DNA of 44,708 nt, taken from sequence record MF807953. The stretch is one strand, 5' to 3'. Below, piece by piece: positions 4,340 through 29,106 of the stretch. How positions within the stretch are numbered: the stretch's first letter is position 1; every line of letters starts with the position of its first letter. The notes below the pieces were generated by a model, which saw only the letters and a program-made list of their open reading frames with translations, made no database searches and was not told the origin of the DNA. A program made the translations under genes and the position numbers. This DNA is from Escherichia phage Ayreon.

Positions 4340-4352
4340 TTCCTGGTTCAGG

Positions 4353-6311
4353 ATGCAGGCTGGTCACCAGAGTGACGCGGATATTTATATTTATGACGAG
4401 ATTGGTTTCTGGGGTGTTACAGCGAAGCAGTTTATCAGTGATCTGAATGCACTGGGCGATATCACCCATATTAATCTCCATATTAATTCACCGGGTGGCG
4501 ATGTCTTTGAAGGCATCGCCATTTTTAATGCACTGAAAACACATGGTGCGTCCATTACCGTTTATGTCGACGGTGTGGCGGCGTCAATGGCGTCGGTCAT
4601 TGCGATGGTGGGAAACCCGGTCATTATGCCGGAAAACACCTTCATGATGATTCATAAACCATTTGGCTTTACGGGCGGTGATGCGGAGGACATGCGCACC
4701 TATGCCGACCTGCTCGATAAAGTTGAGGCGGTTCTGTTACCCGCTTATGCACAGAAAACCGGGAAAACCACCGATGAAATTGCTGCCATGCTGGCGGATG
4801 AGACCTGGATGTCTGGTGCCGAATGTCTGGCACATGGATTTGCTGATCAGGTAACGCCAGCCGTTAAGGCAATGGCATGTATTCAGTCAAAACGTACAGA
4901 GGAATTTAAAAAGATGCCGGAATCCATTCGAAACATGATTACTCCGCCACGCAACAGTGCTCCACGCGTACAGGATAATGAACCTGAAGCCTCCCGGACG
5001 CCAGTGCAGGCAGCAGCACCCGTGGTGGATGAAAACAGCATCCGTGCGCAGGTACTGGCAGAGCAAAAAGCGCGTGTAAACGGTATTAATGATCTGTTTG
5101 CCATGTTTGGCGGGCGTTATCAGACGCTGCAGGCTCAGTGTCTTGCCGATCCTGAATGTTCGCTGGAGCAGGCCCGCGAAAAGCTGTTGAACGAGATGGG
5201 GCGCGAGTCCACGCCATCCAATAAAAATACCCCGGCTCATATTTATGCCGGTAACGGTAATTTTGTGGGGGACGGGATCCGCCAGGCGCTGATGGCGCGT
5301 GCCGGATTTGAAAAAGCCGAACGTGATAATGTCTACAACGGGATGACCCTGCGTGAATATGCCCGTATGTCACTGACTGAACGGGGTATTGGGGTTTCCA
5401 GTTATAACCCGATGCAGATGGTCGGTGCGGCGTTCACACACAGTACGTCTGACTTCGGTAATATTCTGCTGGATGTTGCGAACAAAGCCATTCTGCAGGG
5501 CTGGGAAGATGCCCCTGAAACCTATGAACAGTGGACGCGGAAAGGTCAGTTGTCTGATTTTAAAATTGCCCATCGTGTGGGTATGGGGGGCTTCAGTGCT
5601 CTGCGTCAGGTGCGTGAAGGGGCGGAATATAAATACGTCACCACCGGAGATAAACAGGCCACTATTGCACTGGCGACCTATGGCGAGCTGTTCAGTATCA
5701 CCCGTCAGGCCATTATCAATGATGATCTGAATATGCTGACCGATGTCCCGATGAAGCTGGGCCGTGCGGCGAAATCCACTATTGCCGATCTGGTTTATGC
5801 CATTCTGACGTCTAACCCGAAAATCTCCACAGATAATGTAAGTCTGTTCGATAAAGCGAAACATGCAAACGTACTGGAGAGCGCTGCAATGGACGTGGCA
5901 TCGCTGGATAAAGCCCGCCAGTTGATGCGCGTTCAGAAAGAGGGGGAGCGTCATCTGAATATTCGTCCTGCGTTCGTACTGGTACCGACGGCGATGGAGT
6001 CTGTTGCTAACCAGGTCATTCGCTCCTCAAGTGTCAAGGGGGCTGACATTAACGCCGGTATTATTAACCCGGTGAAAGATTTTGCGACCGTTATTGCAGA
6101 GCCTCGTCTTGATGATAACAGCCAGACCACCTTCTACCTGGCTGCGTCAAAAGGCTCCGATACGATTGAAGTGGCTTATCTCAACGGTGTGGATACGCCA
6201 TATATTGATCAGATGGAGGGCTTCAGTGTGGATGGCGTGACAACGAAAGTGCGTATTGACGCCGGTGTCGCGCCAGTTGATCACCGCGGTCTGGTGAAAT
6301 GTACGGCGTAA
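4353..6311 (+). CDS. Prohead protease (ClpP/S14-like) fused to major capsid protein
   Basis: 652-aa continuous ORF; start chosen at MQAGHQ (ATG 4353) just after the portal stop. N-terminal part has ClpP-like features (GVAASMAS serine segment, MIHKP histidine segment); the C-terminal ~360 aa is capsid-like. A rho-independent terminator follows. Confidence 0.7.
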   Translation: MQAGHQSDADIYIYDEIGFWGVTAKQFISDLNALGDITHINLHINSPGGDVFEGIAIFNALKTHGASITVYVDGVAASMASVIAMVGNPVIMPENTFMMIHKPFGFTGGDAEDMRTYADLLDKVEAVLLPAYAQKTGKTTDEIAAMLADETWMSGAECLAHGFADQVTPAVKAMACIQSKRTEEFKKMPESIRNMITPPRNSAPRVQDNEPEASRTPVQAAAPVVDENSIRAQVLAEQKARVNGINDLFAMFGGRYQTLQAQCLADPECSLEQAREKLLNEMGRESTPSNKNTPAHIYAGNGNFVGDGIRQALMARAGFEKAERDNVYNGMTLREYARMSLTERGIGVSSYNPMQMVGAAFTHSTSDFGNILLDVANKAILQGWEDAPETYEQWTRKGQLSDFKIAHRVGMGGFSALRQVREGAEYKYVTTGDKQATIALATYGELFSITRQAIINDDLNMLTDVPMKLGRAAKSTIADLVYAILTSNPKISTDNVSLFDKAKHANVLESAAMDVASLDKARQLMRVQKEGERHLNIRPAFVLVPTAMESVANQVIRSSSVKGADINAGIINPVKDFATVIAEPRLDDNSQTTFYLAASKGSDTIEVAYLNGVDTPYIDQMEGFSVDGVTTKVRIDAGVAPVDHRGLVKCTA

Positions 6312-6334
6312 ACGTCGCAGACAACAACTCTGAT

Positions 6335-6355
6335 GGCCCGTAAGGGCTTTTTTTG
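6335..6355 (+). terminator. Rho-independent terminator after capsid gene
   Basis: Short GC stem (ggccc gtaa gggc) followed by a T7 run immediately after the capsid stop codon. Confidence 0.5.
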
Positions 6356-6397
6356 TACCTGAAATCAGCCCCTGAACGGGGCTGTGCGGAGACAGTT

Positions 6398-6721
6398 ATG
6401 GCAAAGAATTTTGTAGAAGAAGGAAAAACGGTGGCGATTGTTGCCAGTGCAGCCATCAGCAGCGGAGATCTGGTGCAGGTGGGTGATGTTTTTGCGGTGG
6501 CGCTGACCGATATTCCACAGGGTGAAACAGGCGACGGCATGACCGAAGGTGTGTTTATGCTGCCTAAGCTGAAAACGGATGACATGAAAACGGGTAAGAA
6601 GGTTTATCTGAAGTCCGGAAAAGTTCAGCTGACTAACAGCGGCTCTGATCCGCTGGTCGGGGTTGTCTGGGCAGATGCCGGAACCAGTGCAGAAGAAGTG
6701 CCGGTAAAACTCAATGTCTGA
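6398..6721 (+). CDS. Small head protein (DUF2190-like, possible decoration/cement or FI-like)
   Basis: 107-aa ORF with a GGAGA ribosome-binding site 7 nt upstream of ATG 6398; Gly/Val-rich small protein at the position of head accessory genes. Confidence 0.5.
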   Translation: MAKNFVEEGKTVAIVASAAISSGDLVQVGDVFAVALTDIPQGETGDGMTEGVFMLPKLKTDDMKTGKKVYLKSGKVQLTNSGSDPLVGVVWADAGTSAEEVPVKLNV

Positions 6722-6989
6722 TCCCTTTTCCCGGCTGGCAGCGCGTATGGATGCGATCACGGTCAGAAAGATGGGAAAGACAGCCTCGATTAATGATGTC
6801 GATATGACTGTGATCCCGGGAGAAACACTGGCAGAGCTGAATGCTCTGTCCGGACCTGCGGTCTCTCTGGTGGTGTTTTCTTCGGGATACCGCCCACGGC
6901 GCGGGGATCGCGTTGTTTATGACGGACAACATTGGACGGTCACACGGCATGAACGCTTTAACGGTAAGCCAATGATCTTTATTGAGTAA
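6714..6989 (+). CDS. Head-tail joining protein (FII-like)
   Basis: 91-aa ORF overlapping the previous stop, located immediately before the gpZ homologue. Confidence 0.5.
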   Translation: MSDPFSRLAARMDAITVRKMGKTASINDVDMTVIPGETLAELNALSGPAVSLVVFSSGYRPRRGDRVVYDGQHWTVTRHERFNGKPMIFIE

Positions 6990-7000
6990 AGAGGTGTGGG

Positions 7001-7579
7001 ATGAAGGGGCTTGAGAATGCCATCCGCAATCTGAACAGCCTTGATACCCGTATGGTGCCACAGGCCAGCGCATGGGCGATAAACCGTGTGGCACAGAAAG
7101 CGGTCTCGGTTGCCACCCGGCAGGTTGCCGGGAATACCGTTGCGGGAGATAACCAGGTGAAAGGGATACCCCTGAAACTGGTACGTCAGCGTGTCCGGGT
7201 GTTTAAAGCCAGTCCGTCAGGAAAAATGACGGCCAGGATCCGCGTTAACCGGGGCAATCTGCCTGCCATTAAGCTGGGGACCGTCCGGGTCAGACTGACC
7301 CGGCGTGGTGGAAAACTGCAGTACCGTGGCAGCGTGCTGAAGGTGGGTAAATATCTTTTCCGGGATGCGTTTATTCAGCAACTGGCGAATGGTCGCTGGC
7401 ATGTGATGCGGCGTATTGATGGCAAAAATCGTTACCCCATTGATGTGGTGAAAATCCCGCTGTCCGGACCGCTGACACAGGCATTTGAAGATGCCCGCGA
7501 CCGCATCATTGCTGCGGAAATGCCGAAACAGCTGGGGTATGCACTGAAACAACAACTGAGGTTATGGCTGACCCGATGA
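7001..7579 (+). CDS. Z: Minor tail protein Z
   Basis: 192-aa ORF, the same length as lambda gpZ, at the syntenic position before gpU. Confidence 0.8.
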   Translation: MKGLENAIRNLNSLDTRMVPQASAWAINRVAQKAVSVATRQVAGNTVAGDNQVKGIPLKLVRQRVRVFKASPSGKMTARIRVNRGNLPAIKLGTVRVRLTRRGGKLQYRGSVLKVGKYLFRDAFIQQLANGRWHVMRRIDGKNRYPIDVVKIPLSGPLTQAFEDARDRIIAAEMPKQLGYALKQQLRLWLTR

Positions 7580-7977
7580 ACCGACATACACAAATCCGCC
7601 AGGCCGTACTGGCACGCCTTCGGGAACAGTGTGGAGACAGCGCCACGTTTTTTGACGGGCTTCCGGCATTTATTGATGCGCAGGAACTGCCTGCCGTGGC
7701 GGTGTGGCTGAGTGATGCTCAGTACACCGGAAAAATGACGGATGAAGATGACTGGCAGGCTGTTCTGCATATTGCTGTCTTCATCCGGGCACAGGCACCG
7801 GATTCAGAGCTGGATATGTGGATGGAGAGCACCATTTTCCCGGCTCTGAATGATATACCGGCACTTTCCGGACTCATCGACACCCTGATCCCTCTCGGTT
7901 TTAACTATCAACGTGATAATGAGATGGCCACCTGGGCGATGGCGGAAATCACGTACCAGATCACGTACACGAATTAA
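7564..7977 (+). CDS. U: Tail terminator protein U
   Basis: 137-aa product with segments ATFFDG, PAVAVWL, ELHI..F, PDSELD.WMES and IPALS.LI matching my recollection of lambda gpU. Confidence 0.85.
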   Translation: MADPMNRHTQIRQAVLARLREQCGDSATFFDGLPAFIDAQELPAVAVWLSDAQYTGKMTDEDDWQAVLHIAVFIRAQAPDSELDMWMESTIFPALNDIPALSGLIDTLIPLGFNYQRDNEMATWAMAEITYQITYTN

Positions 7978-14945: not shown

Positions 14946-17900
14946 ATGGGTAAAGGCAGCAGTAAGGGGCATACCCCGCGCGAAGCGAAGGACAACCTGA
15001 AATCCACGCAGCTGCTGAGTGTGATTGATGCCATCAGCGAAGGGCCGGTTGAAGGTCCGGTGGATGGATTAAAAAGCGTGCTGCTGAACAGTACGCCGGT
15101 GCTGGACAGTGAGGGGAATACCAATATATCCGGCGTCACGGTGGTGTTCCGGGCAGGTGAGCAGGAGCAGTCACCGCCGGAGGGATTTGAATCCTCCGGC
15201 TCCGAGACGGTGCTGGGTACGGAAGTGAAATATGACACGCCGATCACCCGCACCATTACGTCGGCAAACATTGACCGTCTGCGCTTTACCTTCGGTGTAC
15301 AGGCACTGGTGGAAACCACCTCAAAGGGTGACAGGAATCCGTCGGAAGTCCGTCTGCTGGTTCAGATACAGCGTAATGGTGGCTGGGTGACGGAAAAAGA
15401 CATCACCATTAAGGGCAAAACCACCTCGCAGTATCTGGCCTCGGTGGTGGTGGGTAACCTGCCGCCGCGCCCGTTCAATATACGGATGCGCAGGATGACG
15501 CCGGACAGCACCACAGACCAGCTGCAGAACAAAACGCTCTGGTCGTCATACACCGAAATCATCGATGTGAAACAGTGCTACCCGAACACGGCACTGGTCG
15601 GCGTGCAGGTGGACTCGGAGCAGTTCGGCAGCCAGCAGGTGAGCCGTAATTATCATCTTCGCGGACGCATTCTGCAGGTGCCGTCGAACTATAACCCGCA
15701 GACGCGGCAATACAGCGGTATCTGGGACGGAACGTTTAAGCCAGCATACAGCAACAACATGGCCTGGTGTCTGTGGGATATGCTGACCCACCCGCGTTAC
15801 GGCATGGGTAAACGTCTTGGTGCGGCAGATGTGGATAAATGGGCGCTGTATGTCATCGGCCAGTGTTGCGACCAGTCGGTGCCGGACGGTTTTGGCGGCA
15901 CGGAGCCGCGCATCACCTGTAATGCCTGGCTGACCACACAGCGTAAGGTGTGGGATGTTCTCAGTGATTTCTGCTCGGCGATGCGCTGTATGCCGGTATG
16001 GAACGGGCAGACGCTGACGTTCGTGCAGGACCGGCCATCAGATAAGGTGTGGACCTATAACCGCAGTAATGTGGTGATGCCGGATGATGGCGCGCCGTTC
16101 CGCTACAGCTTCAGCGCCCTGAAGGACCGCCATAATGCCGTTGAGGTGAACTGGATTGACCCGGACAACGGCTGGGAGACGGCGACAGAGCTTGTGGAGG
16201 ATACGCAGGCCATTGCCCGTTACGGTCGTAACGTCACGAAGATGGATGCCTTTGGCTGTACCAGCCGGGGGCAGGCACACCGCGCCGGGCTGTGGCTGAT
16301 TAAAACGGAGCTGCTGGAAACGCAGACCGTGGACTTCAGCGTGGGTGCTGAAGGGCTTCGCCATGTACCGGGCGATGTCATTGAAATCTGCGATGATGAC
16401 TATGCCGGTATCAGCACCGGCGGGCGCGTGCTGGCGGTGAACAGCCAGACCCGGACGCTGACGCTCGACCGTGAAATCACGCTGCCATCCTCCGGTACCA
16501 CGCTGATAAGCCTGGTTGACGGAAGTGGCAATCCGGTCAGCGTGGAGGTCCAGTCCGTCACCGACGGCGTGAAGGTAAAAGTGAGCCGTGTTCCTGACGG
16601 CGTTGCCGGATACAGCGTATGGGGGCTGAAGCTGCCGACGCTGCGCCAGCGCCTGTTCCGCTGCGTGAGTATCCGTGAGAACGATGACGGCACGTATGCC
16701 ATCACCGCCGTGCAGCATGTACCGGAAAAAGAGGCCATCGTGGATAACGGGGCGCACTTTGACGGCGACCAGAGCGGCACGGTGAATGGTGTCACGCCGC
16801 CAGCAGTGCAGCATCTGACCGCCGAAGTCACCGCAGACAGCGGGGAATACCAGGTGCTGGCCCGCTGGGACACGCCGAAGGTGGTGAAGGGGGTGAGCTT
16901 TATGCTTCGCCTGACCGTGGCAGCGGATGACGGCAGTGAGCGGCTGGTCAGCACGGCCCGGACGACGGAAACCACTTACCGCTTCACACAACTGGCTCTG
17001 GGGAACTACAGGCTGACAGTCCGGGCAGTAAATGCATGGGGACAGCAGGGCGATCCGGCGTCGGTATCGTTCCGGATTGCCGCACCGGCAGCGCCGTCGC
17101 GGATTGAGCTGACGCCGGGCTATTTTCAGATAACCGCCACGCCGCATCTTGCGGTTTATGATCCGACGGTACAGTTTGAGTTCTGGTTCTCGGAAAAGCG
17201 GATTGCGGATATCAGGCAGGTTGAAACCACAGCACGCTATCTTGGTACGGCGTTGTACTGGATAGCCGCCAGTATCAATATCAAACCGGGCCATAATTAT
17301 TATTTTTACGTTCGCAGTGTGAACACCGTTGGCAAATCGGCATTCGTGGAGGCTGTTGGTCAGCCGAGTGATGACGCATCCGGCTATCTGGATTTTTTCA
17401 AAGGCGAGATAGGGAAAACCCATCTGGCTCAGGAGCTGTGGACGCAGATTGATAACGGTCAGCTTGCGCCTGACCTGGCTGAAATCAGGACATCCATTAC
17501 GGATGTCAGCAATGAAATCACACAGACCGTCAATAAGAAACTGGAAGACCAGAGTGCGGCAATTCAGCAGATACAGAAGGTTCAGGTTGATACAAATAAT
17601 AACCTGAACAGCATGTGGGCTGTGAAGCTGCAGCAGATGCAGGACGGACGCCTTTATATCGCGGGTATTGGTGCCGGTATTGAGAACACCCCTGACGGCA
17701 TGCAGAGTCAGGTGCTGCTGGCGGCAGACAGGATTGCGATGATTAATCCTGCGAATGGCAACACAAAGCCGATGTTTGTTGGTCAGGGCGATCAGATATT
17801 CATGAACGAAGTGTTCCTGAAACGCCTGACGGCTCCCACCATTACCAGCGGCGGTAATCCTCCGGTATTTTCCCTGACACCGGACGGGCGGCTGACGGCG

Positions 17901-18443
17901 AAAAATGCCGATATCAGCGGTAACGTGAATGCGAACGCCGGGACGCTCAACAATGTCACGGTAAATGAAAACTGTACGATTAAGGGCATGCTGGAGGCGA
18001 CTCAGGTCAGAGGTGACTTCGTTAAAGCTGTATCCAAATCATTCCCGAAACAGGCTGGTACGTGGGGTAACACGGAAACACCAAACGGGACGGTTACAGT
18101 CACCATCAGCGATGATCATAACTTTGACCGTCAAATCATTATTCCACCCATTATCTTTAACGGAATAGCGTATAGCGATCCGGGAAGTGGTAATAACCCG
18201 GGAGGTACAAGATACACGGGTTATGGTTTTGAAGTTCGCAAAAACGGTGTATTAATCGCATCCAGAGAAACTAAAGGGGCCATTCCCGGTAGCTACAGTG
18301 CGGTTATTGATATGCCGAGTGGCAGGGGAAGCGTCACTCTGGAGTTTAAGGTTTTCCATAAAGGCAATCAGTGGGCAGGTAATATCACCGACTGTACGGT
18401 GATTGTGACCAAAAAAGCTGCTTCCGGCATCAGTATTCGTTGA
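14946..18443 (+). CDS. J: Central tail fibre / host specificity protein J
   Basis: 1165-aa ORF (lambda J is about 1130 aa) after I; followed by an intrinsic terminator. Confidence 0.9.
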
Positions 18444-18463
18444 AGTTGTTATAACCCATATAA

Positions 18464-18489
18464 GGGCACCAGAAATGGTGCCTTTTTTA
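18464..18489 (+). terminator. Rho-independent terminator after J
   Basis: Hairpin gggcacc-agaaat-ggtgcc followed by a T6 run. Confidence 0.65.
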
Positions 18490-18512: not shown

Positions 18513-19112
18513 ATGCGTAAACTTTATGCCGCCATTTTGTCCGCAGCCATTTGTCTGGCCGTATCCGGTGCGCCTGCATGGGCATCTGAACATCAGTCCA
18601 CGCTGAGCGCGGGGTATCTTCATGCCCGGACCAACGTTCCCGGCAGCGATGATCTGAACGGGATTAACGTGAAATACCGTTATGAGTTTACGGACACACT
18701 GGGGCTGGTGACGTCATTCAGCTATGCAGGAGACAAGAATCGCCAGCTGACCCATTACAGCGATACCCGCTGGCATGAAGATTCCGTTCGTAACCGCTGG
18801 TTCAGCGTAATGGCGGGGCCGTCTGTGCGCGTGAATGAATGGTTCAGCGCGTATGCGATGGCGGGTATGGCTTACAGCCGTGTTTCGACTTTTTCCGGGG
18901 ATTATCTCCGCGTAACTGACAACAAGGGGAAAACGCATGATGTGCTGACCGGAAGTGATGACGGTCGCCACAGCAACACGTCTCTGGCGTGGGGGGCTGG
19001 CGTGCAGTTTAACCCGACCGAATCCGTGGCCATTGATATTGCTTATGAAGGCTCCGGCAGTGGCGACTGGCGCACTGACGGTTTCATCGTGGGGGTCGGT
19101 TATAAATTCTGA
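18513..19112 (+). CDS. lom: Outer membrane protein Lom (Ail/Lom family)
   Basis: 199 aa with a signal peptide (AICLAVSGAPAWA) and beta-barrel-like alternation, C-terminal ...GVGYKF; near-identical to my recollection of lambda Lom. Confidence 0.9.
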   Translation: MRKLYAAILSAAICLAVSGAPAWASEHQSTLSAGYLHARTNVPGSDDLNGINVKYRYEFTDTLGLVTSFSYAGDKNRQLTHYSDTRWHEDSVRNRWFSVMAGPSVRVNEWFSAYAMAGMAYSRVSTFSGDYLRVTDNKGKTHDVLTGSDDGRHSNTSLAWGAGVQFNPTESVAIDIAYEGSGSGDWRTDGFIVGVGYKF

Positions 19113-19138
19113 TTAGCCAGGTAACACAGTGTTATGAC

Positions 19139-19166
19139 AGCCCGCCGGTTCAGGCGGGCTTTTTTG
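19139..19166 (+). terminator. Rho-independent terminator after lom
   Basis: Hairpin gcccgcc-ggttcag-ggcgggc followed by a T5 run. Confidence 0.65.
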
Positions 19167-19170
19167 TGGG

Positions 19171-22100
19171 GTGAATATGGCAGTAAAGATTTCAGGTGTA
19201 CTGAAAGACGGTGCAGGTAAACCGGTACAGAACTGCACAATCCAGCTGAAAGCAAAACGTAACAGCACCACGGTGGTGGTGAACACGGTGGCATCTGAAA
19301 ATCCGGATGAAGCCGGGCGTTACAGCATGGACGTTGAGTACGGTCAGTACAGCGTTATTCTGTTGGTGGAAGGATTCCCGCCGTCACATGCCGGGACCAT
19401 CACCGTGTATGAAGATTCCCGACCCGGTACGCTGAATGATTTTCTCGGTGCCATGACGGAGGATGATGCCCGTCCGGAGGCACTGCGCCGCTTTGAACTG
19501 ATGGTGGAAGAGGTGGCGCGTAACGCGTCCGCAGTGGCGCAGAACACAGCAGCCGCGAAGAAGTCAGCCAGCGATGCCGGCACATCAGCCCGTGAGGCGG
19601 CAACCCGTGCGACTGATGCTGCAGGCTCAGCACGTGCAGCCAGCACGTCAGCCGGACAGGCCGCGTCGTCGGCTCAGTCAGCGTCTTCCAGCGCAGGAAC
19701 GGCATCAACAAAGGCCAGTGAAGCATCGAAAAGTGCTGCTGCTGCAGAGTCCTTAAAAAGCGCGGCAGCTACCAGTGCCAGTGCCGCGAAAACGTCAGAA
19801 ACGAATGCTGCAGCGTCACAAAAATCTGCAGCCACTTCTGCATCCACCGCGACCACGAAAGCGTCAGAAGCTGCCACCTCAGCCCGGGATGCGTCGGCTT
19901 CAAAAGTGGCGGCAAAATCATCAGAAACGAGCGCAGCCTCGAGCGCCGGCATTGCAGCTTCCTCGGCAACGGCAGCAGGAAATTCCGCGAAGGCCGCAAA
20001 AACGTCTGAGACGAATGCGGATAACAGCGCACAGGCGGCAGCAGACTCACAAACTGCATCGGCAAACTCCGCGACAGCAGCCAAAAAATCAGAAACCAAC
20101 GCGAAAAATAGTGAGGCAGCAGCAAAGGTCAGCGAAACCAACGCCAAAGCGTCAGAGAACAAGGCGAAAGAATATCTCGACAAGGTCGGGGGACTCGTCA
20201 GCCCGATGACGCAATACGATTGGCCCGTTGTTACTGGTAATGAGTCTTTTTACATAAAGATCGCGAAACTTTCCGATCCCGGAAGCAACAATTGCCATGT
20301 AACGCTAATGGTTACTAACGGCGGTGCCTACGGCTCCCCTTACGGAAACATTGACTTTATCGAGATCTCGGCGCGCGGTCTGCCTTCTTCGCTTACTGCT
20401 GATAATGTATCTCGTTACCTGAGTATACGTCGTTTAGGGCCAACCGGGCTAATCAATAGCATGCAAATGCGTTACGGCCTGGTTAAAGATGATGGCTTTA
20501 TTGAGGTTTGGGCCTTCCAGCGTGCATTTATCAACGGCGCAAAGGTTGCGGTACTGGCGCAGACGGCACGCACGGAATTATACATTCCAGACGGATTTGT
20601 TAAGCAAACCGCCGCGCCTTCTGGATATGTTGAAAGCCCCGTTGTAAGGATTTACGACCAGTTAAACAAGCCGACTAAAGCAGATTTGGGCCTTTCTAAT
20701 GCTATGCTTATAGGCGCTTTTGGTCTTGGCGGTAGCGGTCTTGTTTTGGATGGTAAAATGACCGATAAGGAACTACTACAAGAGCTAAGGGCGAAAGGTG
20801 GGTGTTTCTGGAGGTCAGGAAAACCAACAGGTAGCGAATCAACAATTTTCAGCCACGGTTCTGGTATATTCTCGCGGTGCGGCGATACGTGGTCAGCTAT
20901 TAATATCGATTACGAAAGCGGTAGAGTAAAGATTTACTCTAGTAACGATAATAGACTCAACAATGGTACTTTTAACATAAATGAGCTATACGGAACCAAA
21001 TACAAGCCGTCGAAATCGGATGTTGGACTTGGTAACGTAACTAACGATGCGCAGGTGAAAAAATCCGGCGACATTATGTCAGGTAATCTGTCGATCACTA
21101 AAGCAACACCTTCACTATTCCTGCGTTCAAAAAGTGGAACCGCCCATGTATGGTTCCAAAATGAGGATCAGTCGGAACGCGGCGTTATTTTTGCGCCTAC
21201 AAATACTGATACGCTTGGCGAAGTTCACATCAGGGCTAAAAACGCAAAAGGTCAATCAAGTGGTGATTTTATTGTTCGTCACGACGGGATGGTTGAAGCC
21301 CGTGATCTCACATTAGCGGGTAAAACTAAAGGCGCAAAAGCAGAATTTGCAAACACAAGCACTAGATCCGATGATACTACGGTAAGCATAAAAGGATCTC
21401 AGCATACTCCTCTGGTTTTAACGCGCAACAACACAATTAAAAATTTATCCATTGGGTTTAAGGTTGATGACGTTGACCAAAAATATCTCGGCATATACGG
21501 TGACGGTGATTTGTATTTTGGTGGTTATTCTGACCACACAAAAAACAGCAAAGTAATTACACAAGCAATACTCGATAGCGGGGTAACGGTAGGCGGCAAA
21601 ACAACATTTTCTGACCTTGCCACATTTAACGCAGGTATGTCTGGGCCTATCGAGCCGGAAGCCATTGAAGGCATGACTATCGATCTTAATGACCTTATCA
21701 TTAAGTTCACGGATAAAGGTTCAGTTAAATACTATCACTGCAAAACTGCCGGAGGCGGTTCGAATATTACCAATAAGCCTGACGGCGTAGGCGGCAACTT
21801 TTTGCTTCGTGTAGAGTCAATTCGTAAGGTTAGTGATTCAGATTATATAAACATGCAAACGCTGATTAGCGGCGACAAAGGACGCGTGCATGTTCGTTTT
21901 GTTACTAATGGTAATTGGACAGCATGGAGCGAGCATGTTGTTTCAGGATGGAATCAGGATGTGACCGTCAGGTCGTTAACCTCGACGACTCCATCAAAAT
22001 TAGGCGGCGGGCGTGTTGATGTGCTGGGGAGTACGTCAGATTACAGTAGTATGAATTGTGCTGTGCGCGGTGTTGATAGCACTGGAACCAATTCGGCGTG

Positions 22101-22935
22101 GTCAGTAGGTACATCGGAAAACACGGGAAAAATGTTGTGCCTTAAAAACCACAGAAGCAGCGCTCAAGTGCTGTTAAATGGCGATGATGGCGCGGTGCAA
22201 CTACTAAGCGGTACTGTCAACGGTGCTACAGCACAGGCGCTAACCATCAACAAAGATGAGGTTAACTCAACTGCTGATTTAGTAATTAGAAAACAGTCAG
22301 GGACTGGCAATCGTTTTGTTTTAAAGAACGCAGGTAATGCAGAACTACCGTTTAACATCAGTGTATGGGGTTCAAGTGATCGACAAAACGTTTTTGAGGT
22401 TGGAACGTCTGCTGCGTATCTGTTTTATGCGCAAAGAACGCCAGCAGGCCAGTTGTTTGATGTAAATGGCGCTATTAATTGCACAACGCTGAATCAGTCA
22501 TCAGACCGCGACCTTAAAGACGATATTCTCGTTATCAGCGACGCGACGAAAGCAATCCGCAAAATGAACGGGTACACCTACACGCTCAAGGAAAACGGCC
22601 TTCCTTATGCTGGCGTTATTGCACAGGAAGTAATGGAGGCGCTACCGGAAGCCGTAGGATCGTTTACTCGTTACGGTGAAGAATTGCAGGGTCCGACCAT
22701 TGATGGCAACGAGCTACGCGAAGAAACGCGTTACCTCAATGTTGATTATGCGGCGGTGACTGGTTTACTTGTCCAGGTCGCCCGTGAAACAGATGATCGC
22801 GTTACCGCGCTGGAAGAGGAAAACACAACGCTACGTCAAAATCTGGCAACAGCAGACACCCGGATCAGCACTCTGGAAAATCAGGTAAGCGAACTGGTTG
22901 CACTTGTCCGGCAGTTAACAGGAAGCGAACATTGA
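19171..22935 (+). CDS. stf: Side tail fibre protein, mosaic: lambda Stf-like N-terminus, Ala/Ser-rich repeats, novel distal region, C-terminal intramolecular chaperone (peptidase S74-like)
   Basis: N-terminus MAVKISGVLKDGAGKPVQNCTIQLKA... matches lambda Stf; Ala/Ser/Thr-rich KTSETNA-type repeats follow; beyond about residue 340 the sequence is different and lower in GC. The C-terminal ~150 aa carry an SDRDLK motif and a coiled-coil tail typical of auto-cleaving chaperone domains. Confidence 0.8.
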   Translation: MNMAVKISGVLKDGAGKPVQNCTIQLKAKRNSTTVVVNTVASENPDEAGRYSMDVEYGQYSVILLVEGFPPSHAGTITVYEDSRPGTLNDFLGAMTEDDARPEALRRFELMVEEVARNASAVAQNTAAAKKSASDAGTSAREAATRATDAAGSARAASTSAGQAASSAQSASSSAGTASTKASEASKSAAAAESLKSAAATSASAAKTSETNAAASQKSAATSASTATTKASEAATSARDASASKVAAKSSETSAASSAGIAASSATAAGNSAKAAKTSETNADNSAQAAADSQTASANSATAAKKSETNAKNSEAAAKVSETNAKASENKAKEYLDKVGGLVSPMTQYDWPVVTGNESFYIKIAKLSDPGSNNCHVTLMVTNGGAYGSPYGNIDFIEISARGLPSSLTADNVSRYLSIRRLGPTGLINSMQMRYGLVKDDGFIEVWAFQRAFINGAKVAVLAQTARTELYIPDGFVKQTAAPSGYVESPVVRIYDQLNKPTKADLGLSNAMLIGAFGLGGSGLVLDGKMTDKELLQELRAKGGCFWRSGKPTGSESTIFSHGSGIFSRCGDTWSAINIDYESGRVKIYSSNDNRLNNGTFNINELYGTKYKPSKSDVGLGNVTNDAQVKKSGDIMSGNLSITKATPSLFLRSKSGTAHVWFQNEDQSERGVIFAPTNTDTLGEVHIRAKNAKGQSSGDFIVRHDGMVEARDLTLAGKTKGAKAEFANTSTRSDDTTVSIKGSQHTPLVLTRNNTIKNLSIGFKVDDVDQKYLGIYGDGDLYFGGYSDHTKNSKVITQAILDSGVTVGGKTTFSDLATFNAGMSGPIEPEAIEGMTIDLNDLIIKFTDKGSVKYYHCKTAGGGSNITNKPDGVGGNFLLRVESIRKVSDSDYINMQTLISGDKGRVHVRFVTNGNWTAWSEHVVSGWNQDVTVRSLTSTTPSKLGGGRVDVLGSTSDYSSMNCAVRGVDSTGTNSAWSVGTSENTGKMLCLKNHRSSAQVLLNGDDGAVQLLSGTVNGATAQALTINKDEVNSTADLVIRKQSGTGNRFVLKNAGNAELPFNISVWGSSDRQNVFEVGTSAAYLFYAQRTPAGQLFDVNGAINCTTLNQSSDRDLKDDILVISDATKAIRKMNGYTYTLKENGLPYAGVIAQEVMEALPEAVGSFTRYGEELQGPTIDGNELREETRYLNVDYAAVTGLLVQVARETDDRVTALEEENTTLRQNLATADTRISTLENQVSELVALVRQLTGSEH

Positions 22936-22974
22936 TATCCTTCAAGCTCTGAAGGAGGCTGTTCCCGGTACGTT

Positions 22975-23118
22975 CAGACTGTTGTTGAGCTGGAGATCGC
23001 AACGGAGGAAGAAACCTCATTGCTGGAAGCCTGGAAAAAGTATCGGGTGTTGCTGAACCGTGTTGATACATCAACTGCACCTGATATTGAGTGGCCTACG
23101 AACCCTGTCAGGGAGTAA
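22975..23118 (+). pseudogene. tfa: 3' remnant of tail fibre assembly gene tfa
   Basis: In-frame translation immediately after the stf stop reads ...[45 protein letters not shown], which resembles the C-terminus of lambda-type Tfa; there is no start codon and no N-terminal part. Confidence 0.6.
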
Positions 23119-23642
23119 TCATTGGGATTATGCCGCAGCACGTCGTATGCAAGAACGTGCTGCGGTTGGATGCTATTTTTTCCCTGAAGCGGAAAACATT
23201 ACTACAGTTATGACGATGAATTACAAGGGGTTAAATGATGCCACGGCATAGCGATATTGAAATAGCCTGGCATGCTTCAATACAGTGGGAACCGAATGGC
23301 CGGAAGACCGTCACCACACAGCGGTTTGTCTAGGGACTGAGCAATGTTCACAGGTACTGGGCTATGAGAGCTGTTAATAAACTGATAAATACGGCAACAC
23401 CACTTAGGTCAGCGTAGCCGGTAAATCGAAAAGCAACTTCATCCAGGAATTTCTGTCAGTGTTGTTTGGAGATCTGATTGCCATGATGGATCAAGAGTTC
23501 TCTCTTATTGCCGGCTTGGTGTTGACTGAAAACTGGTATGATGCCGGGCGCATGTTGGCTAATCATTGGGAATACTGCCGACACTGAACCATTCGCTCTT
23601 TTGATTTGGGGCGGTGCGACATAGCATGTAGGGAGTAAATCA

Positions 23643-24146
23643 ATGACTGAATTTCTTGGAAAACTGTTCGACAGGGTTTATACGGAGAAGGATTTCGGCA
23701 TTAATGTCGCCATATTTGTCGCGGGACTTGCCGGAATGAGCTGTTATCTGATCCTTCACGACTATGTCCTGACGCTGTTCGCATTTATTATTCCATTCCC
23801 GATCGTCAAGATCATTGCCGGAGGATGGCATCAGCGTCTTCTTGCCCAGAAAGGAAAAGCTGCTTCAAGGCAGCAGTTGGCCGCACTTTATGATTCACTT
23901 ACGGACAGTGAAAAAAACGTGGTACAGCACTTTGTAGCATTCGGCGGTGCTGTGATGACATGGGGACAAATGAACCGGCTTGATGATCCGCAAACTGGTG
24001 TGGAGTCCCTGGTTCGGAAGGGATTACTGGGTACCTCCGTGTCCGTGGATGGAATGCACGAGACCTTCGAGCTGGATCTGACGCTTTTTGCCTTTGCTTA
24101 CCGTTGGCGAGCCTCTCAGAATACGGACTCTGCGGCAGAGGGTTAA
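23643..24146 (+). CDS. Small membrane protein, possible superinfection exclusion protein (SieB-like)
   Basis: 167 aa with two N-terminal hydrophobic helices (VAIFVAGLAGMSCYLIL and LTLFAFIIPFPIVKIIAGGW) and a soluble C-terminal domain; located in the accessory region between tail fibre and int; ends at a bidirectional terminator. Confidence 0.45.
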   Translation: MTEFLGKLFDRVYTEKDFGINVAIFVAGLAGMSCYLILHDYVLTLFAFIIPFPIVKIIAGGWHQRLLAQKGKAASRQQLAALYDSLTDSEKNVVQHFVAFGGAVMTWGQMNRLDDPQTGVESLVRKGLLGTSVSVDGMHETFELDLTLFAFAYRWRASQNTDSAAEG

Positions 24147-24481: not shown

Positions 24482-24844
24482 TTAAACGAATGCCATTGCT
24501 GATAAGCGGTTGGCTCCGTCTTGAATACTGTCGTTATCGCCACGCTCGATCGCTTCTGCGACTTGGCGCATTAAAAGCACTGCTTGGCGGGCATTTGCCA
24601 TAACTCTTTCATCGTCCCAAACACCGACTTGAAGCAACTTCGTAATGATATCTGCAGTGGCGTCAGAAAGATCGGCAATTTCAGCGAATGACGGGTTAAA
24701 GTCGCGTAGTTGCTCAACCGATTTTGCGTTTACATGTTTCACAAACCATGCAGAGACTTCTTGGATTTTCCAGTACAACTCTAAAGCTAAATCATTACTG
24801 TTAACATTAGCAGCACTATAAATACTAGCAACGTTTGAGTTCAT
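24482..24844 (-). CDS. Hypothetical protein (120 aa), AT-rich accessory gene
   Basis: 120-aa minus-strand ORF in visibly AT-rich DNA, directly upstream (same strand) of the 42-aa ORF; I recognise no family. Confidence 0.5.
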   Translation of the reverse strand: MNSNVASIYSAANVNSNDLALELYWKIQEVSAWFVKHVNAKSVEQLRDFNPSFAEIADLSDATADIITKLLQVGVWDDERVMANARQAVLLMRQVAEAIERGDNDSIQDGANRLSAMAFV

Positions 24845-25140: not shown

Positions 25141-25613
25141 TGTTTGTGTTGTACACCGCCCAATCAACAGTGTCAATAGAACAAAGATTGCTGCATGTAC
25201 AAATGTTCTTTGGCTACAAATACACCTACTGATCATGTTCTGCTATGCTCTGATACCTCCAAAATGTACAATCAGCGGCATGAATTTTTCTTTGTACATA
25301 TGATTGTACATAATCAAAGAGACAGCAATTATGACAAGCCTTTTGGCCGCAGAGGTAGCGAAAAGAAGAACCTTTGCCATTATTTCTCACCCCAATAATT
25401 AAGCCAAAATTAAAGCTCTTTTACTCTTTCAAAATCCTTTCAGTTAATTGAGGTTGAGCCATATAACTCATTTAAATACATTTAGTTATGTGGCTTCTTT
25501 AATTGAAAATTCTTTCATGTAACTTTAAATCGATCTGCTTGCTTTCATCAAAAATCTGTACATGTGCTTGTACATAATGTACAAAACAGCAGAGGTGTTT
25601 TTTTATTTGTACA
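25141..25613. promoter_or_regulatory. Array of nine TGTACA motifs upstream of int (candidate protein-binding / att arm region)
   Basis: TGTACA occurs at 25141, 25187, 25256, 25284, 25296, 25557, 25569, 25578 and 25608 within about 470 bp, including the repeated unit TTGTACATAAT, in AT-rich non-coding DNA ending at the int start. Confidence 0.5.
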
Positions 25614-25622
25614 AGGTGAGTA

Positions 25623-26840
25623 ATGGCGCTGTCTGATGCGTGGTTGCGTTCAGTCGTTGGAAAGGAACGTGATAAGGTTTTGGTTAAATCCGATCGTGAT
25701 GGTCTGTCTGTCAGAGTATCACCGAAAGGTCGCGTAGTGTTCCAATATCGTTATCAATGGGCAGGGAAAGGTGAGCGCCTTGATATCGGAACTTACCCGG
25801 CAACTGGATTAAAAGAGGCCAGAGAAGAAGTTATCCGTCTCCGTGGTGAACTCGAGTCAAACCGCAATCCACGATTAGTCAGGCAGGCTGAAAAACGAAA
25901 AGCTACTGAAGCCATGACGGTAGAGTCTGTGATCCGTGCCTGGTATGAAGCATATTGTGTAAAAAATAAAAAAGGTTCTGAACAGATACTCCGCTCGTTT
26001 GAGCTGCACCTGTTCTCTAAAATCGGGAATATCCCTCACGATGCAGCTACATTGCATGATTGGTTAGAAGTCCTGGAGCCTCTTAGCACTAAGACTCCAG
26101 CAATAGCAGACCGATTGCTAATTAACGCAAAGCAGGCCCATGTCTGGGCGTATAAGAGAAAGCTCATTGAAACTCGCCCACTGTCGGATATCACGGGTAA
26201 AGATATGGATATCCGTAAAGGTCAGAAGAAACGGTTTCTGACACATGATGAAATTAAAATCCTTTATGCTGCGATCGATGGTTCTCGAATGGTTCCTAAA
26301 TACCGGGCCTTCATTAAACTATTGCTGCATTTTGGCTGCCGTAGTTCAGAGCTAATTACCGCCAGGGTGGACGATTTTGATTTCATTAATAAAGTATGGA
26401 CTGTACCACCAGAACGACATAAGACTGGGGAGATAACAGGCGAACCGCTAAAGCGGCCCATTATTGAACCGGTTGAAGAGCTTATAAAGTACGCTATTTC
26501 TATGAACAATGGTTCCGATATGCTTTTTACTAAGGAAGGAAGCAGGGAACCCGTTGGTCGGACATCATTGCAGTCGCTGCCTTACAATTTAATGCAGTAC
26601 GCATGGCGGCGTTTGGGGTATCAATTCCCTCATTGGTCTCTTCATGATTTGAGGCGAACAGCACGAACAAACTTTTCTGATCTTACTGCGCCTCATATTG
26701 CAGAAATAATGCTAGGTCATAAACTGCCAGGGGTATGGCAGGTTTATGACAAGAGCGATTATTTAGATGAACAGCGTAAAGCTTACCAGGCATGGTGGGA
26801 GAGAGTTGAATCGATAGTTACTTGTACTTGTTCAGACTAG
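25623..26840 (+). CDS. int: Tyrosine integrase (P4-type, with N-terminal arm-binding domain)
   Basis: 405 aa; N-terminal region typical of the P4-like integrase arm-binding domain (LSDAWLRS..GLSVRVSPKG..FQYRY); catalytic-domain features RSSEL, HDLRRTART and terminal Tyr region VYDKSDY. Confidence 0.9.
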   Translation: MALSDAWLRSVVGKERDKVLVKSDRDGLSVRVSPKGRVVFQYRYQWAGKGERLDIGTYPATGLKEAREEVIRLRGELESNRNPRLVRQAEKRKATEAMTVESVIRAWYEAYCVKNKKGSEQILRSFELHLFSKIGNIPHDAATLHDWLEVLEPLSTKTPAIADRLLINAKQAHVWAYKRKLIETRPLSDITGKDMDIRKGQKKRFLTHDEIKILYAAIDGSRMVPKYRAFIKLLLHFGCRSSELITARVDDFDFINKVWTVPPERHKTGEITGEPLKRPIIEPVEELIKYAISMNNGSDMLFTKEGSREPVGRTSLQSLPYNLMQYAWRRLGYQFPHWSLHDLRRTARTNFSDLTAPHIAEIMLGHKLPGVWQVYDKSDYLDEQRKAYQAWWERVESIVTCTCSD

Positions 26841-26973
26841 AACTGACATTTTGCATAGGCAGAACGCAATTATGCATATTGCGGTATAATCCCCTTCTTA
26901 AAACTGTAAGAACTGCTTGCTAATCCTTGCAGTTTTTGATTATAACATTTTTATTTGTTTATTAGGATTTTTG

Positions 26974-29106
26974 ATGGAACTGTTACAGGAACACGGGGCG
27001 ATACTTAAAGTTGTAATCATGCCTACTACTGGGGAACAAACCATAATCCAAGGTTTCGATACTGGCCTCCTCAACCCAGAGATATCCAACATTCTTTTTT
27101 TATTGGCCAAAACACCAAAAGAAATTAGTGAGATTTTTGTCAATGAAAATGATAACTTTCAGCCTACTCTAAGCGGGCTAAATCCTATTTTTTTAATATC
27201 TAAAGAAAATCTTGAAAAAATACCAGATATTTATCAAACGCCATTTTGCTTAATTTTTTGTGCTAAAGAAGATTTTTCGTATTTTTGTGCTTTAAAAAAA
27301 CATTTTGCTATACCACCTATAATTTGTTGCAATTCTAAACGCGCTGATCTACCACTTAATAAGATTAATAGTATATACTCATTTGATAAGGTGCTCTTCT
27401 CTCGGTTGAAATTCATTGAGGATAAAATAAGAAAAAATCACAGTGAAAAGAAAATATCAACGAAGTTGAAGCGAAGAGGGGCTTTATTTAATAAATCACC
27501 TTGGAGATCGACGCTTAACAATTCAACACTACCCAATGAGTTGTTAATTGAATCACTTGGCTATATGCTATCTCCACCAAAAAGAATTAAAGATGGTAGT
27601 AGCAAAAGAGAGTTTATAGAAATAATACTTCATAGCGTTGATGCATACACCGAATGTTTAAAGGAATTAGATATACCACTTCCAACGGAAGTCTTACTTT
27701 TTGCTCCGGGTATGCACTCTTTTTTATATGATAAAAATAATGACTTTTATGAGTTAATAACGGAAAATTTATCCACAATTGAGAAAAAATTCCTTATTGA
27801 TGGAGTGTTGAGGAATCCAGGCTATTCTGGAATTAGACTTGATATAAATTCAGATAGAAAAGAACTTTTTAAAAGTCCTGCTTTCCGTTACCTCACCTCA
27901 CTAAGACGAGCTGAAATGCGATTAACAACAGCTGCGATTACTTTATTTAGCATAAATAAAAAAATCCCAGCAATAAGATTGCCAAATGCAATAAATCATT
28001 ACTCCAATTATTTGAAAAATCTTGAAGATCTTGCAACTTCTTCTGGGATAAATAGTGAAGCATTCATCACTAAATCTAAAGCATTCAATACTGTTATTCG
28101 AAGAGCCCTTGGTTGCAAGTTGAGAACATATATAAGTAAAAACTATAGCGATTTGTCCTTTGTTTGTGATGTACCATTGGATTGGATTAGGTTTAATAAC
28201 ATACCTATAATGTTCAGTCATGAGATATCAAGAATAAATGCTACGCCTGGTAACGTTCTTCTACAGAGCGCCTCTGCTTTTCCGCGCGTTTTAGTAAAAG
28301 CATCTGAGTTGAGAAAGGTTTTAGTTATACGTTCTTTTGAGCCTGATGATCACTTAAAGTTCATATTAGAGAACGCAATTGAGATATTTAAAAAACAGAT
28401 GCCAGATCTTGATTGCGAGATTATTGATGTTAGATCGAAAGCTGAGTTTATTGATGCTCTAAATCAATATCAAGGTCATATTCTTGTTATGGATTGTCAT
28501 GGAAACCATGATGGCAATGGGAGTCATGGATGGTTAATAATAGGTGAGGATAAAGTGGACACTTGGAGTTTGAGAAAAATAGCAAGAATTCCTCCTATCG
28601 TAATTCTGAGTGCATGTTTAACATCTGCCCTAAGTGGTTCTCATGCCTCTGTTGCTAATGGCTTCGTTATAAGTGGTGCATTAAGTGTCATCGGAACATT
28701 ACTGCCTGTAAATGCGATAGACTCTGCTGTTTTTGTAAGTCGGTTGATCTACCGGTTTTACGAGTTTCCTTCGACGCTATCTACAAATTTTACACATGTT
28801 AATGTAAGGCTTTTTCTTTCTGTTTTTCTTAGGATGTCCTATGCAAGCGATTTAATAAGAGGATTTTTATCTGAAGATTTGATACCGAATAATTCATGGA
28901 AGAAAGATGCAGTTGATATTAACATGTATATAAACATGCTTCACCATGATTGGTATGATTATGTAATTAACAAATTGACGATGTTAACGGGGCTCACGAA
29001 AAAAGATGTACTTGATTTTATCGATAGAAAATTATTCATAACCGAAACTATGTGCTATAGCCAAATTGGATTTCCAGATGCAATCACAATTAGTCTTAAA
29101 GATTGA
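26974..29106 (+). CDS. Large cargo protein with C-terminal CHAT/caspase-like protease domain
   Basis: 711 aa from MELLQEHG. Strikingly low GC with Asn/Lys/Ile-rich composition. The C-terminal region has a caspase-fold His/Cys dyad signature: strand plus HG in ILVMDCHGNHDG and strand plus Cys in PIVILSACLTS, followed by GFVISGALSVIGTLLPVNAIDSAVFVSRLIYRFY, typical of CHAT domains. The N-terminal ~500 aa have no features I recognise. Confidence 0.65.
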   Translation: MELLQEHGAILKVVIMPTTGEQTIIQGFDTGLLNPEISNILFLLAKTPKEISEIFVNENDNFQPTLSGLNPIFLISKENLEKIPDIYQTPFCLIFCAKEDFSYFCALKKHFAIPPIICCNSKRADLPLNKINSIYSFDKVLFSRLKFIEDKIRKNHSEKKISTKLKRRGALFNKSPWRSTLNNSTLPNELLIESLGYMLSPPKRIKDGSSKREFIEIILHSVDAYTECLKELDIPLPTEVLLFAPGMHSFLYDKNNDFYELITENLSTIEKKFLIDGVLRNPGYSGIRLDINSDRKELFKSPAFRYLTSLRRAEMRLTTAAITLFSINKKIPAIRLPNAINHYSNYLKNLEDLATSSGINSEAFITKSKAFNTVIRRALGCKLRTYISKNYSDLSFVCDVPLDWIRFNNIPIMFSHEISRINATPGNVLLQSASAFPRVLVKASELRKVLVIRSFEPDDHLKFILENAIEIFKKQMPDLDCEIIDVRSKAEFIDALNQYQGHILVMDCHGNHDGNGSHGWLIIGEDKVDTWSLRKIARIPPIVILSACLTSALSGSHASVANGFVISGALSVIGTLLPVNAIDSAVFVSRLIYRFYEFPSTLSTNFTHVNVRLFLSVFLRMSYASDLIRGFLSEDLIPNNSWKKDAVDINMYINMLHHDWYDYVINKLTMLTGLTKKDVLDFIDRKLFITETMCYSQIGFPDAITISLKD

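Follow-up and report, generated by a model that had tools for sequence, protein, structure and literature searches.

Locus and reading frame of the side tail fibre gene

The 44,708-nucleotide sequence of Escherichia phage Ayreon (MF807953), hereafter the window, represents a lambdoid phage genome that is complete and in cos order, with the terminase genes beginning at position 26. We analysed its side tail fibre gene, stf, together with the fragment of a tail fibre assembly gene, tfa, that lies directly behind it (Table 1). Residues are numbered throughout from the GTG at 19171, but the ATG at 19177 is the more likely start, giving a protein (Stf) of 1252 residues and a biological numbering two residues lower, because it opens the sequence MAVKISG with which lambda Stf, the lambda fibre fragment of PDB 9e7m and the PGAP annotation also begin, and because a Shine-Dalgarno-like GGGG stands just upstream of it.

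Table 1. Positions of the genes, protein segments and junctions at the stf locus in the window
Feature	Position (residues)	Strand	Remarks
J	14946-18443		lambdoid gene order
lom	18513-19112		between J and stf
Terminator-like hairpin	19139-19160	+	AGCCCGCC...GGCGGGCT then TTTTTT; after lom, ~10 nt before stf
stf (side tail fibre)	19171-22935	+	1254 residues from GTG 19171; TGA stop at 22933-22935
Lambda-type Stf N-terminal domain	19177-19578 (3-136)	+	phage_tail_N; forms collar attaching fibre to tail
Ala/Ser-rich heptad shaft	19471-20190 (~101-340)	+	period-7 self-identity; six KxSE[TN]xA motifs
Left recombination patch	19912-20018	+	~105 bp homologous in lambda-type stf and T5-type ltf
T5 pb1 (L-shaped tail fibre)-type shaft	20019-22032 (~284-954)	+	BLASTP, blastn, tblastn, third-position GC
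Distal tip, presumed receptor-binding region	22033-22500 (955-1110)	+	90% to 640R1, 75% to mEp460
W1066-G1067...R1071 motif	22366-22383	+	corresponds to T5 'GWGSGR' (Arg1250)
Intramolecular chaperone / Peptidase_S74 domain	22501-22932 (1111-1254)	+	Pfam S74, MAFFT, alignments to T5 pb1 and S16 gp37
Ser1111 of predicted catalytic dyad	22501-22503	+
Lys1116 of predicted catalytic dyad	22516-22518	+
Spacer, stf stop to tfa homology	22936-22971	+	36 nt
tfa 3' remnant	22972-23118	+	last 48 codons and stop of a lambda-type tfa; no start codon

A lambda-type N-terminus joined to a T5-type shaft

The N-terminal domain was assigned by Pfam phage_tail_N over residues 3-136 (E=5.4e-72, 240 bits against a cut-off of 26.6), and residues 3-96 were nearly identical to the tail fibre chain of PDB 9e7m (E=3e-51). 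Similarity to lambda orf-401 reached 84.5% identity across residues 3-286 by BLASTP and similarity to lambda DNA reached 86% across 19005-20018 by blastn, with none further in either case. An original prediction, made from the letters of the window, had taken the first ~340 residues as lambda Stf; the match to lambda held, but it ends at about residues 283-286 (nt 20018). With a phage_tail_N domain, a position downstream of J and lom and a predicted proximal coiled coil, the gene has the features of the lambda Stf type.

The Ala/Ser-rich repeats of the KTSETNA type that the same prediction described were recovered, as six KxSE[TN]xA motifs at residues 207, 249, 277, 305, 319 and 326 whose spacings are all multiples of 7. 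Alanine makes up 34% and serine 21% of residues 140-345, and the self-identity of the region was 0.42, 0.44, 0.38 and 0.42 at lags of 7, 14, 21 and 28 residues versus ~0.16 at other lags. Tandem Repeats Finder revealed no tandem array in the DNA of this region, only two doublets of 12-13 nt, and the repeat is a heptad periodicity at the level of the protein. We predict that these heptads form a trimeric coiled coil, and they fit the proximal coiled coil of Ur-lambda Stf, which extends over residues 102-393 behind N-terminal domains that build a dodecameric collar on the tail (PMC12617516).

An antisense open reading frame (ORF) of 169 residues (19674-20183, minus strand) lies within these heptads and is the counterpart of lambda 'orf206b'; most likely it is no gene but a side effect of GCN-rich codons, which hold the opposite strand open.

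Beyond the lambda-like portion the affinities of the protein were with phage T5. A tblastn search of a phage collection with residues 368-929 found a full-length match to the L-shaped tail fibre (LTF) of T5 and T5-like phages. Residues 183-954 aligned with residues 34-819 of T5 pb1 at 54% identity (BLASTP, ~770 residues) and residues 153-954 with the LTF of Salmonella phage Tennessee at 57%; at the DNA level, 19909-20742 was 74% identical to T5 ltf over 844 bp (blastn, E=2e-149) and patches of 79-87% identity were found to the ltf of Tennessee. The sequence past the switch had been described as an unrelated distal region, which is accurate with respect to the distal part of the lambda protein, but residues ~284-954 are homologous to T5 pb1. 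Within this shaft, residues 508-591 (20692-20943) also resemble a part of the SU10 podophage long tail fibre (residues 550-635; PDB 7z47_D, E=8e-6), a conserved fibre element common to very different phage types.

The place at which the two ancestries meet could be narrowed to the left recombination patch, since lambda stf and T5 ltf have a 116-bp stretch in common at 82.8% identity and all members of a six-way alignment were homologous across 19912-20018. Upstream of this patch the window clustered with lambda, PhiR29_1 and mEp460, and downstream of it the window and mEp460 clustered with T5 and Tennessee while lambda and PhiR29_1 diverged. As judged from these alignments, such a switch of grouping is the signature of a homologous crossover inside the common patch.

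A drop in GC near 20200 had been read as the mark of the switch to foreign sequence. The drop is present, with total GC going from 0.57-0.63 (19400-20150) through 0.50 to 0.41-0.45, but as a marker of the junction we rejected it. At 20190 it is GC at codon position 2 that falls, from 0.70 to 0.43, while GC at third positions (GC3) holds at 0.51 and falls only from ~20670, to 0.38 for residues 501-930 versus 0.65 in J. The fall at 20200 is thus mostly the end of the Ala/Ser-rich heptads and not a change of origin; the low GC3 further on is compatible with, though only suggestive of, descent from a low-GC phage, for example a relative of T5.

The distal tip and the C-terminal chaperone

Similarity of the T5 type stops after residue 954, and for the tip that follows (residues 955-1110) we detected no similarity to the tips of T5 pb1 (best E=2.8), lambda orf-314 or PhiR70_1. 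Because the tip resembles neither that of lambda nor that of T5, it is reasonable to suppose that the receptor differs from that of lambda. A surface glycan, for instance O-antigen, is the probable receptor and in our view the best guess, because T5-type lateral fibres (PMC4690869) and the Stf of Gifsy-1 (PMC12312913) target O-polysaccharide. A Pfam profile search detected no enzymatic domain in Stf.

The extreme C-terminus, comprising the last 144 residues, is an intramolecular chaperone domain, as had been proposed, and the domain search placed it well above the Pfam threshold: Peptidase_S74 (PF13884) matched residues 1111-1162 at positions 1-57 of the 58 in its hidden Markov model (HMM), with E=2.3e-12 and 47.4 bits against a cut-off of 22. 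The motif SDRDLK begins at residue 1111 (nt 22501), and the first HMM position corresponds to Ser1111 here and, in T5 pb1, to residue 264 of a fragment starting at 1001, i.e. Ser1264. In a MAFFT alignment of six sequences (the window, mEp460, PhiR70_1, Seuratvirus SLUR26, T5 and Tennessee) the Ser, Asp and Lys of this motif were invariant, and gp37 of S16 (PDB 6f45) also aligned with the domain. The conserved Ser-Lys pair that the prediction had read from the motif therefore survives proper alignment, Ser1111 and Lys1116 matching Ser1264 and Lys1269 of T5 pb1 by both the Pfam HMM and MAFFT.

In T5 pb1, Ser1264 is the scissile residue, activated by Lys1269, and the chain is cut between Thr1263 and Ser1264; cleavage needs a correctly assembled trimer, which is sensed by Arg1250 of the neighbouring chain, and the chaperone has a trimeric coiled coil at its centre (PMC4690869). 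Because the dyad and the W-G...R motif both correspond to those of pb1, Stf is predicted to be cleaved between Ser1110 and Ser1111, which would release a chaperone of 144 residues. A C-terminal coiled coil had been expected as well, and an AlphaFold2 monomer model of residues 930-1254 (23-sequence alignment) contained a long helix at residues 1193-1249 (22747-22917) that matches the coiled coil of the T5 chaperone and whose sequence shows an a/d heptad pattern. The predicted local distance difference test score (pLDDT) was 67-90 in this block and below 50 at residues 1106-1194, and the model was used for secondary structure only.

It could be argued that the S74 domain is not cleaved and that the mature fibre keeps it as a structural cap, since it has diverged from characterised chaperones, with 27% identity to that of the Tennessee LTF and weak similarity to that of T5. 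Against this, the Ser, Asp and Lys of SDxxxK and the upstream W-G...R motif were invariant across 23 homologues, and in T5 an uncleaved chaperone blocks receptor binding by masking the receptor site (PMC4690869), so that we consider a permanent cap very unlikely.

Segment structure, distribution and integrity of the gene

The original prediction spoke of a three-part mosaic; a mosaic it is, but one of at least five segments, with breakpoints near 20018, 20150, 21967, 22492 and 22972 in comparison with relatives. Residues 1-283 are common to lambda, the segment from there to about residues 327-367 is common to mEp460 and PhiR70_1, that of about residues 368-929 was found in 640R1 only and, more distantly, in T5-like phages, residues 930-1068 are common to mEp460, and residues 1069-1254 plus the tfa stub are common to mEp460 and PhiR70_1. 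The chaperone (93% identity) is far better conserved than the tip that it serves. Because PhiR70_1 switches ~42 residues before the cleavage site, the comparison suggests that the chaperone moves together with the stub and that the pair serves different kinds of tip.

Of 5426 complete E. coli genomes, 310 contained a sequence that covers at least 80% of the whole stf, with identities reaching 99.8%, and 803 contained the junction of S74 domain and tfa stub (query 22800-23130, at least 80% coverage). Several thousand further genomes matched this query only from its position 174 (22973 in the window), which is the 3' end of an intact tfa, and the right junction is accordingly sharp at 22972/22973 across thousands of genomes. 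The eight junction loci that we examined included mEp460, PhiR70_1 and prophages beside prfC, zinT and sitABCD, representing at least three integration sites. All eight had the same stop codon, a nearly identical 36-nt spacer (with 1-2 substitutions in three of them) and a stub uninterrupted to the natural tfa stop.

NCBI product names for such proteins include 'prophage tail fiber N-terminal domain and S74 family endopeptidase-containing protein' and 'pyocin knob domain-containing S74 family peptidase'; the 'pyocin knob' label given by PGAP was not reproduced with the domain libraries we used, and NCBIfam gave no meaningful match for Stf or the stub. The architecture is thus already known, from database annotation and the general literature, and in the searchable literature we found no paper devoted to the lambdoid S74 fibre or to the tfa scar.

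In several genomes PGAP/RefSeq splits an intact stf into an N-terminal piece labelled as a pseudogene that is incomplete and missing its C-terminus, and a separate S74 or tail fibre coding sequence (CDS). The loci annotated in this way and equivalent to 19177-22935 of the window lie at 4007-7765 of locus L001, 3007-6768 of L002 and 1937-4636 of L012, and in E. coli EBJ001 the ~2 kb between the two annotated pieces carries no annotation.

Such records could be taken to mean that stf is the decaying relic of a cryptic prophage that makes no functional fibre. We regard this as even less probable than a permanent cap, however: the frame is open for 1254-1255 residues in the window, in EBJ001 and in strain 98219, a single CDS of 1091-1257 residues is annotated for the counterpart in other genomes, the catalytic residues are intact, the window holds the full lambdoid gene set from terminase to integrase, and the same architecture is found in the sequenced phages mEp460, PhiR70_1 and vB_EcoS-640R1. 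Because of the open frame in these three sequences, the split itself is an annotation artefact.

The tfa remnant and the right junction

Past the TGA the stf frame runs on for 60 codons (22936-23118), in which residues 13-57 matched positions 86-130 of the 131 in Caudo_TAP (PF02413) with 74.3 bits and E=1.3e-20. The stub was identical to lambda Tfa at 39 of 48 positions (residues 147-194 of Tfa, 81%; tblastn 2e-24) and 90% identical to the Tfa of PhiR29_1. It had been predicted that the last ~48 codons of tfa follow the stf stop in frame and without a start, and that an alignment would reveal significant similarity to Tfa proteins, and both expectations were confirmed by these matches. HMM positions 1-85, which correspond to the N-terminal, fibre-binding domain, are absent from the stub, and no ATG, GTG or TTG occurs within the frame upstream of the tfa homology. 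No other tfa was found anywhere in the window, so that the proposal that an S74 domain stands in place of a separate Tfa also agrees with the gene content.

In Tfa proteins it is the C-terminal domain that is conserved and oligomerises, whereas fibre binding is the task of a variable N-terminal domain (PMC9608196). The homology covers the C-terminal domain only, so that the stub corresponds to the conserved part of Tfa alone and, because it has neither N-terminal domain nor start codon, is by these alignments a pseudogene remnant and not a Tfa. RefSeq genomes carry it under the PGAP label 'tail fiber assembly protein, incomplete, missing N-terminus'.

We also considered whether tfa homology reaches back into the 3' end of stf, an idea prompted by the end of Stf ('...GSEH'), which recalls '...ASEHIAPLQ' of lambda Tfa, and by a look-alike in another frame. 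It was rejected, as a permissive tblastn search (word size 2, E<=10) found no significant Tfa similarity upstream of 22972 in any frame, and the long C-terminal coiled coil is also present in the LTFs of T5-like phages that have no Tfa.

The 3' end of the stub exists in several versions (TNPVRE, AVPVME, VAPIG, LEEPNTM and ANPVRE), of which AVPVME is that of lambda Tfa and TNPVRE is one residue from that of PhiR29_1 Tfa (TNPARE). Over the whole gene the identity between the window and strain 98219 is 97.8%, but the two differ in this allele-specific tail, and crossovers have therefore taken place inside the stub after its formation. The similarity of the stub to intact tfa alleles of co-resident prophages is 90-100%, and the median number of tfa 3' ends in a genome is two. 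In experiments, lambda recombined with the Rac and Qin prophages within stf, and one third of the right-hand junctions with Rac fell in a 95%-identical patch of tfa (PMC3945230).

The conservation of the stub's frame was examined as a possible sign of function and found uninformative, the eight copies being too similar. That the stub is expressed by readthrough of the TGA or by reinitiation, and so supplies the fibre with the oligomerisation domain of Tfa, is the least probable of the alternatives weighed here: it would accord with the frame shared with stf, with the 48 codons left uninterrupted in all eight loci and with the C-terminal domain being the conserved, oligomerising part of Tfa (PMC9608196), but the stub has no start codon, ribosome-binding site or fibre-binding N-domain, the copies of spacer and stub are so alike that chance alone would be expected to leave the frame intact, recombination with co-resident tfa alleles can keep refreshing it, PGAP flags it as a pseudogene, and S74-bearing fibres such as T5 pb1 fold without Tfa (PMC4690869).

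A second scrap related to tfa lies further on, at 23235-23333 (plus strand), and comprises 32 codons, MMPRHSDIEIAWHASIQWEPNGRKTVTTQRFV followed by a stop. It has 75% identity with the N-terminal end of a tfaX-like chimeric ORF in PhiR29_1 (7265-7570 of locus L007), and the DNA around it (23205-23321) shows 90.6% identity.

A probably functional chimeric fibre and its possible exchange

Taken together, these data make it highly probable, at roughly 85%, that the product of this gene is a working side tail fibre, recombined from modules of different ancestry and belonging to a temperate lambdoid phage. The lambda-type N-terminal domain would anchor the trimer in the tail collar, and the Ala/Ser heptad coiled coil, continued by the shaft of T5 pb1 type, would bear a tip of mEp460-like type. 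The S74 domain would trimerise and template the folding of the intertwined tip, and would then remove itself by a cut of the Ser1110-Ser1111 bond catalysed by Ser1111 and Lys1116, so unmasking the receptor-binding end. As folding would be helped in cis, no Tfa should be needed. The distal cassette was probably swapped in by a left crossover in the 105-bp heptad patch that is common to lambda stf and T5 ltf and a right crossover inside the conserved 3' end of tfa, which left the 48-codon non-coding stub.

Several observations weigh against this account or parts of it. The AlphaFold2 monomer of residues 930-1254 was poor (mean pLDDT 56, predicted template modelling score 0.26), and a Foldseek search of the PDB with it gave no match at E<=0.001, the best being the T4 gp34 fibre (E=0.011, template modelling score 0.18). 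Similarity between the chaperone domain and that of T5 is weak outside the motif (E=0.06), low GC3 is the one, suggestive, indication of the direction of transfer, and autocleavage, trimer formation and the nature of the receptor are steps that we infer.

A further and more speculative possibility, which we hold only tentatively, is that the 48-codon stub and the 105-bp patch serve as homology arms, one on either side, in a natural system for exchanging cassettes. Since the S74 cassette retains the tfa 3' end that is conserved, Tfa-dependent distal modules and those with their own chaperone may, under such a system, stay interchangeable by homologous recombination among co-resident lambdoid prophages, and the stub may persist through repeated use and refreshing and not through mere youth. 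The data show crossovers at both patches, on the left in the six-way alignment and on the right as allele-specific stub ends in cassettes that are otherwise nearly identical, but not selection for the stub. If the idea were true, the left arm, which is also present in the ltf of virulent T5-like phages, would let receptor-binding modules pass between virulent and temperate phages.

Tail fibre genes are a textbook case of phage mosaicism, and S74 chaperones are well described as an alternative to Tfa. The significance of the locus beyond the tidying of annotation is accordingly small, and nothing in it would surprise a specialist. It is nevertheless a clear example of an old exchange of sequence between a virulent T5-like lineage and a temperate one, and the splitting of an intact 1254-residue gene in RefSeq understates the number of prophages with an intact fibre. 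The natural junctions are also ready fusion points for engineering lambda-based delivery particles with Tfa-independent tips, namely stf nt ~740-850 (residues ~247-283), the boundary ~42 residues before the cleavage site and the 3' end of tfa.

Flanking sequences

A second strong terminator-like hairpin (18462-18485, plus strand) lies immediately after J, so that lom is bracketed by such hairpins and stf begins 10-17 nt past the one that follows lom. The annotation of mEp460 shows the same arrangement, with a terminator at the equivalent position after lom, and late transcripts are presumably antiterminated past the hairpin, as in lambda.

Identity between the window and E. coli EBJ001 was 100% as far as 25392, a position that in that strain lies inside the 5' end of prfC (25331-25392), and beyond this point a tyrosine integrase is encoded at 25623-26840 (plus strand) with Arm-DNA-bind_3, Phage_int_M and Phage_integrase domains. 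Because the identity ends inside prfC and integrase sequence lies beyond, the attachment site seems to overlap the 5' end of prfC and the window seems to be the excised, cos-linear form of a prophage at prfC. Beside the integrase, a protein of 729 residues (26917-29106, plus strand) matched BovA in PADLOC (E=2e-241) and contained a CHAT protease-like domain (Pfam, 5.8e-6), making it a candidate anti-phage defence gene carried by the phage. Neither Pfam nor PADLOC gave a match for two ORFs between the stub and the attachment site (23643-24146, plus strand, 167 residues; 24482-24844, minus strand, 120 residues). This slot to the right of stf is occupied by Avs2 in strain 98219 and by sitABCD in strains 181.1 and 2024CK-00188, and it appears to be a hotspot for variable cargo or defence genes.

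Comparison with known systems

Phages mEp460 (YP_007112094.1), PhiR70_1 and vB_EcoS-640R1 have stf at the same place behind J and lom, with an N-terminal module 95% identical in nucleotides as far as position 20150, an S74 chaperone 93% identical in amino acids and a nearly identical junction of stop, spacer and stub. The Stf of vB_EcoS-640R1 is 87% identical over residues 1-1094, whereas that of mEp460 diverges over residues 368-929 and in that of PhiR70_1 the middle and tip are shorter and unrelated; the tfa allele at the 3' end of the stub also differs among relatives of the mEp460 type.

T5 pb1 and the LTFs of T5-like phages have a homologous shaft (54-57% amino acid identity over ~770-800 residues, 74-79% nucleotide identity in patches) with Ala/Ser heptads, and pb1, like Stf, ends in an S74 chaperone with the catalytic Lys five residues after the catalytic Ser and with a coiled coil at the C-terminus. 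The collar-binding end of pb1 (residues 1-33), however, is replaced here by the lambda Stf N-domain, its bullet-shaped, oligomannose-binding tip (970-1263) has no counterpart, and T5 is a virulent Tequintavirus with an only distantly related chaperone, whereas the phage that carries this stf is temperate and lambdoid. Because the alignment spans only residues 34-819 of pb1, whose N-terminus and tip are absent here, Stf is on this comparison T5-like in its shaft but not an orthologue of Ltf.

Ur-lambda, with Stf and Tfa, has in common with the present system the N-terminal 283-286 residues, the locus and a coiled-coil proximal shaft. It differs in the orf-314 distal half and in its dependence on a Tfa of 194 residues, neither of which is found here, where folding help would come in cis. 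In lambda the orf-314 part is a T4 gp37-like tip that binds OmpC; no similarity to orf-314 was detected in Stf, which is without a distal half of the lambda type.

The C-terminal chaperone of the K1F endosialidase is the founding member of Peptidase_S74, the Pfam family to which the domain of Stf also belongs, the fibre of K1F being a sialidase tailspike. An engineered chimera of the lambda Stf N-terminus and the S74-bearing fibre of K1F is functional (PMC11338833), with its junction at residue 528 versus about residue 283 in the natural chimera described here. Tfa and an intramolecular chaperone are alternative solutions in other coliphages as well (PMC11990801), and the engineered and the natural fibre appear to share one logic, in which a distal module with its own cleavable chaperone is set on the N-terminus of lambda Stf and Tfa is dispensed with.

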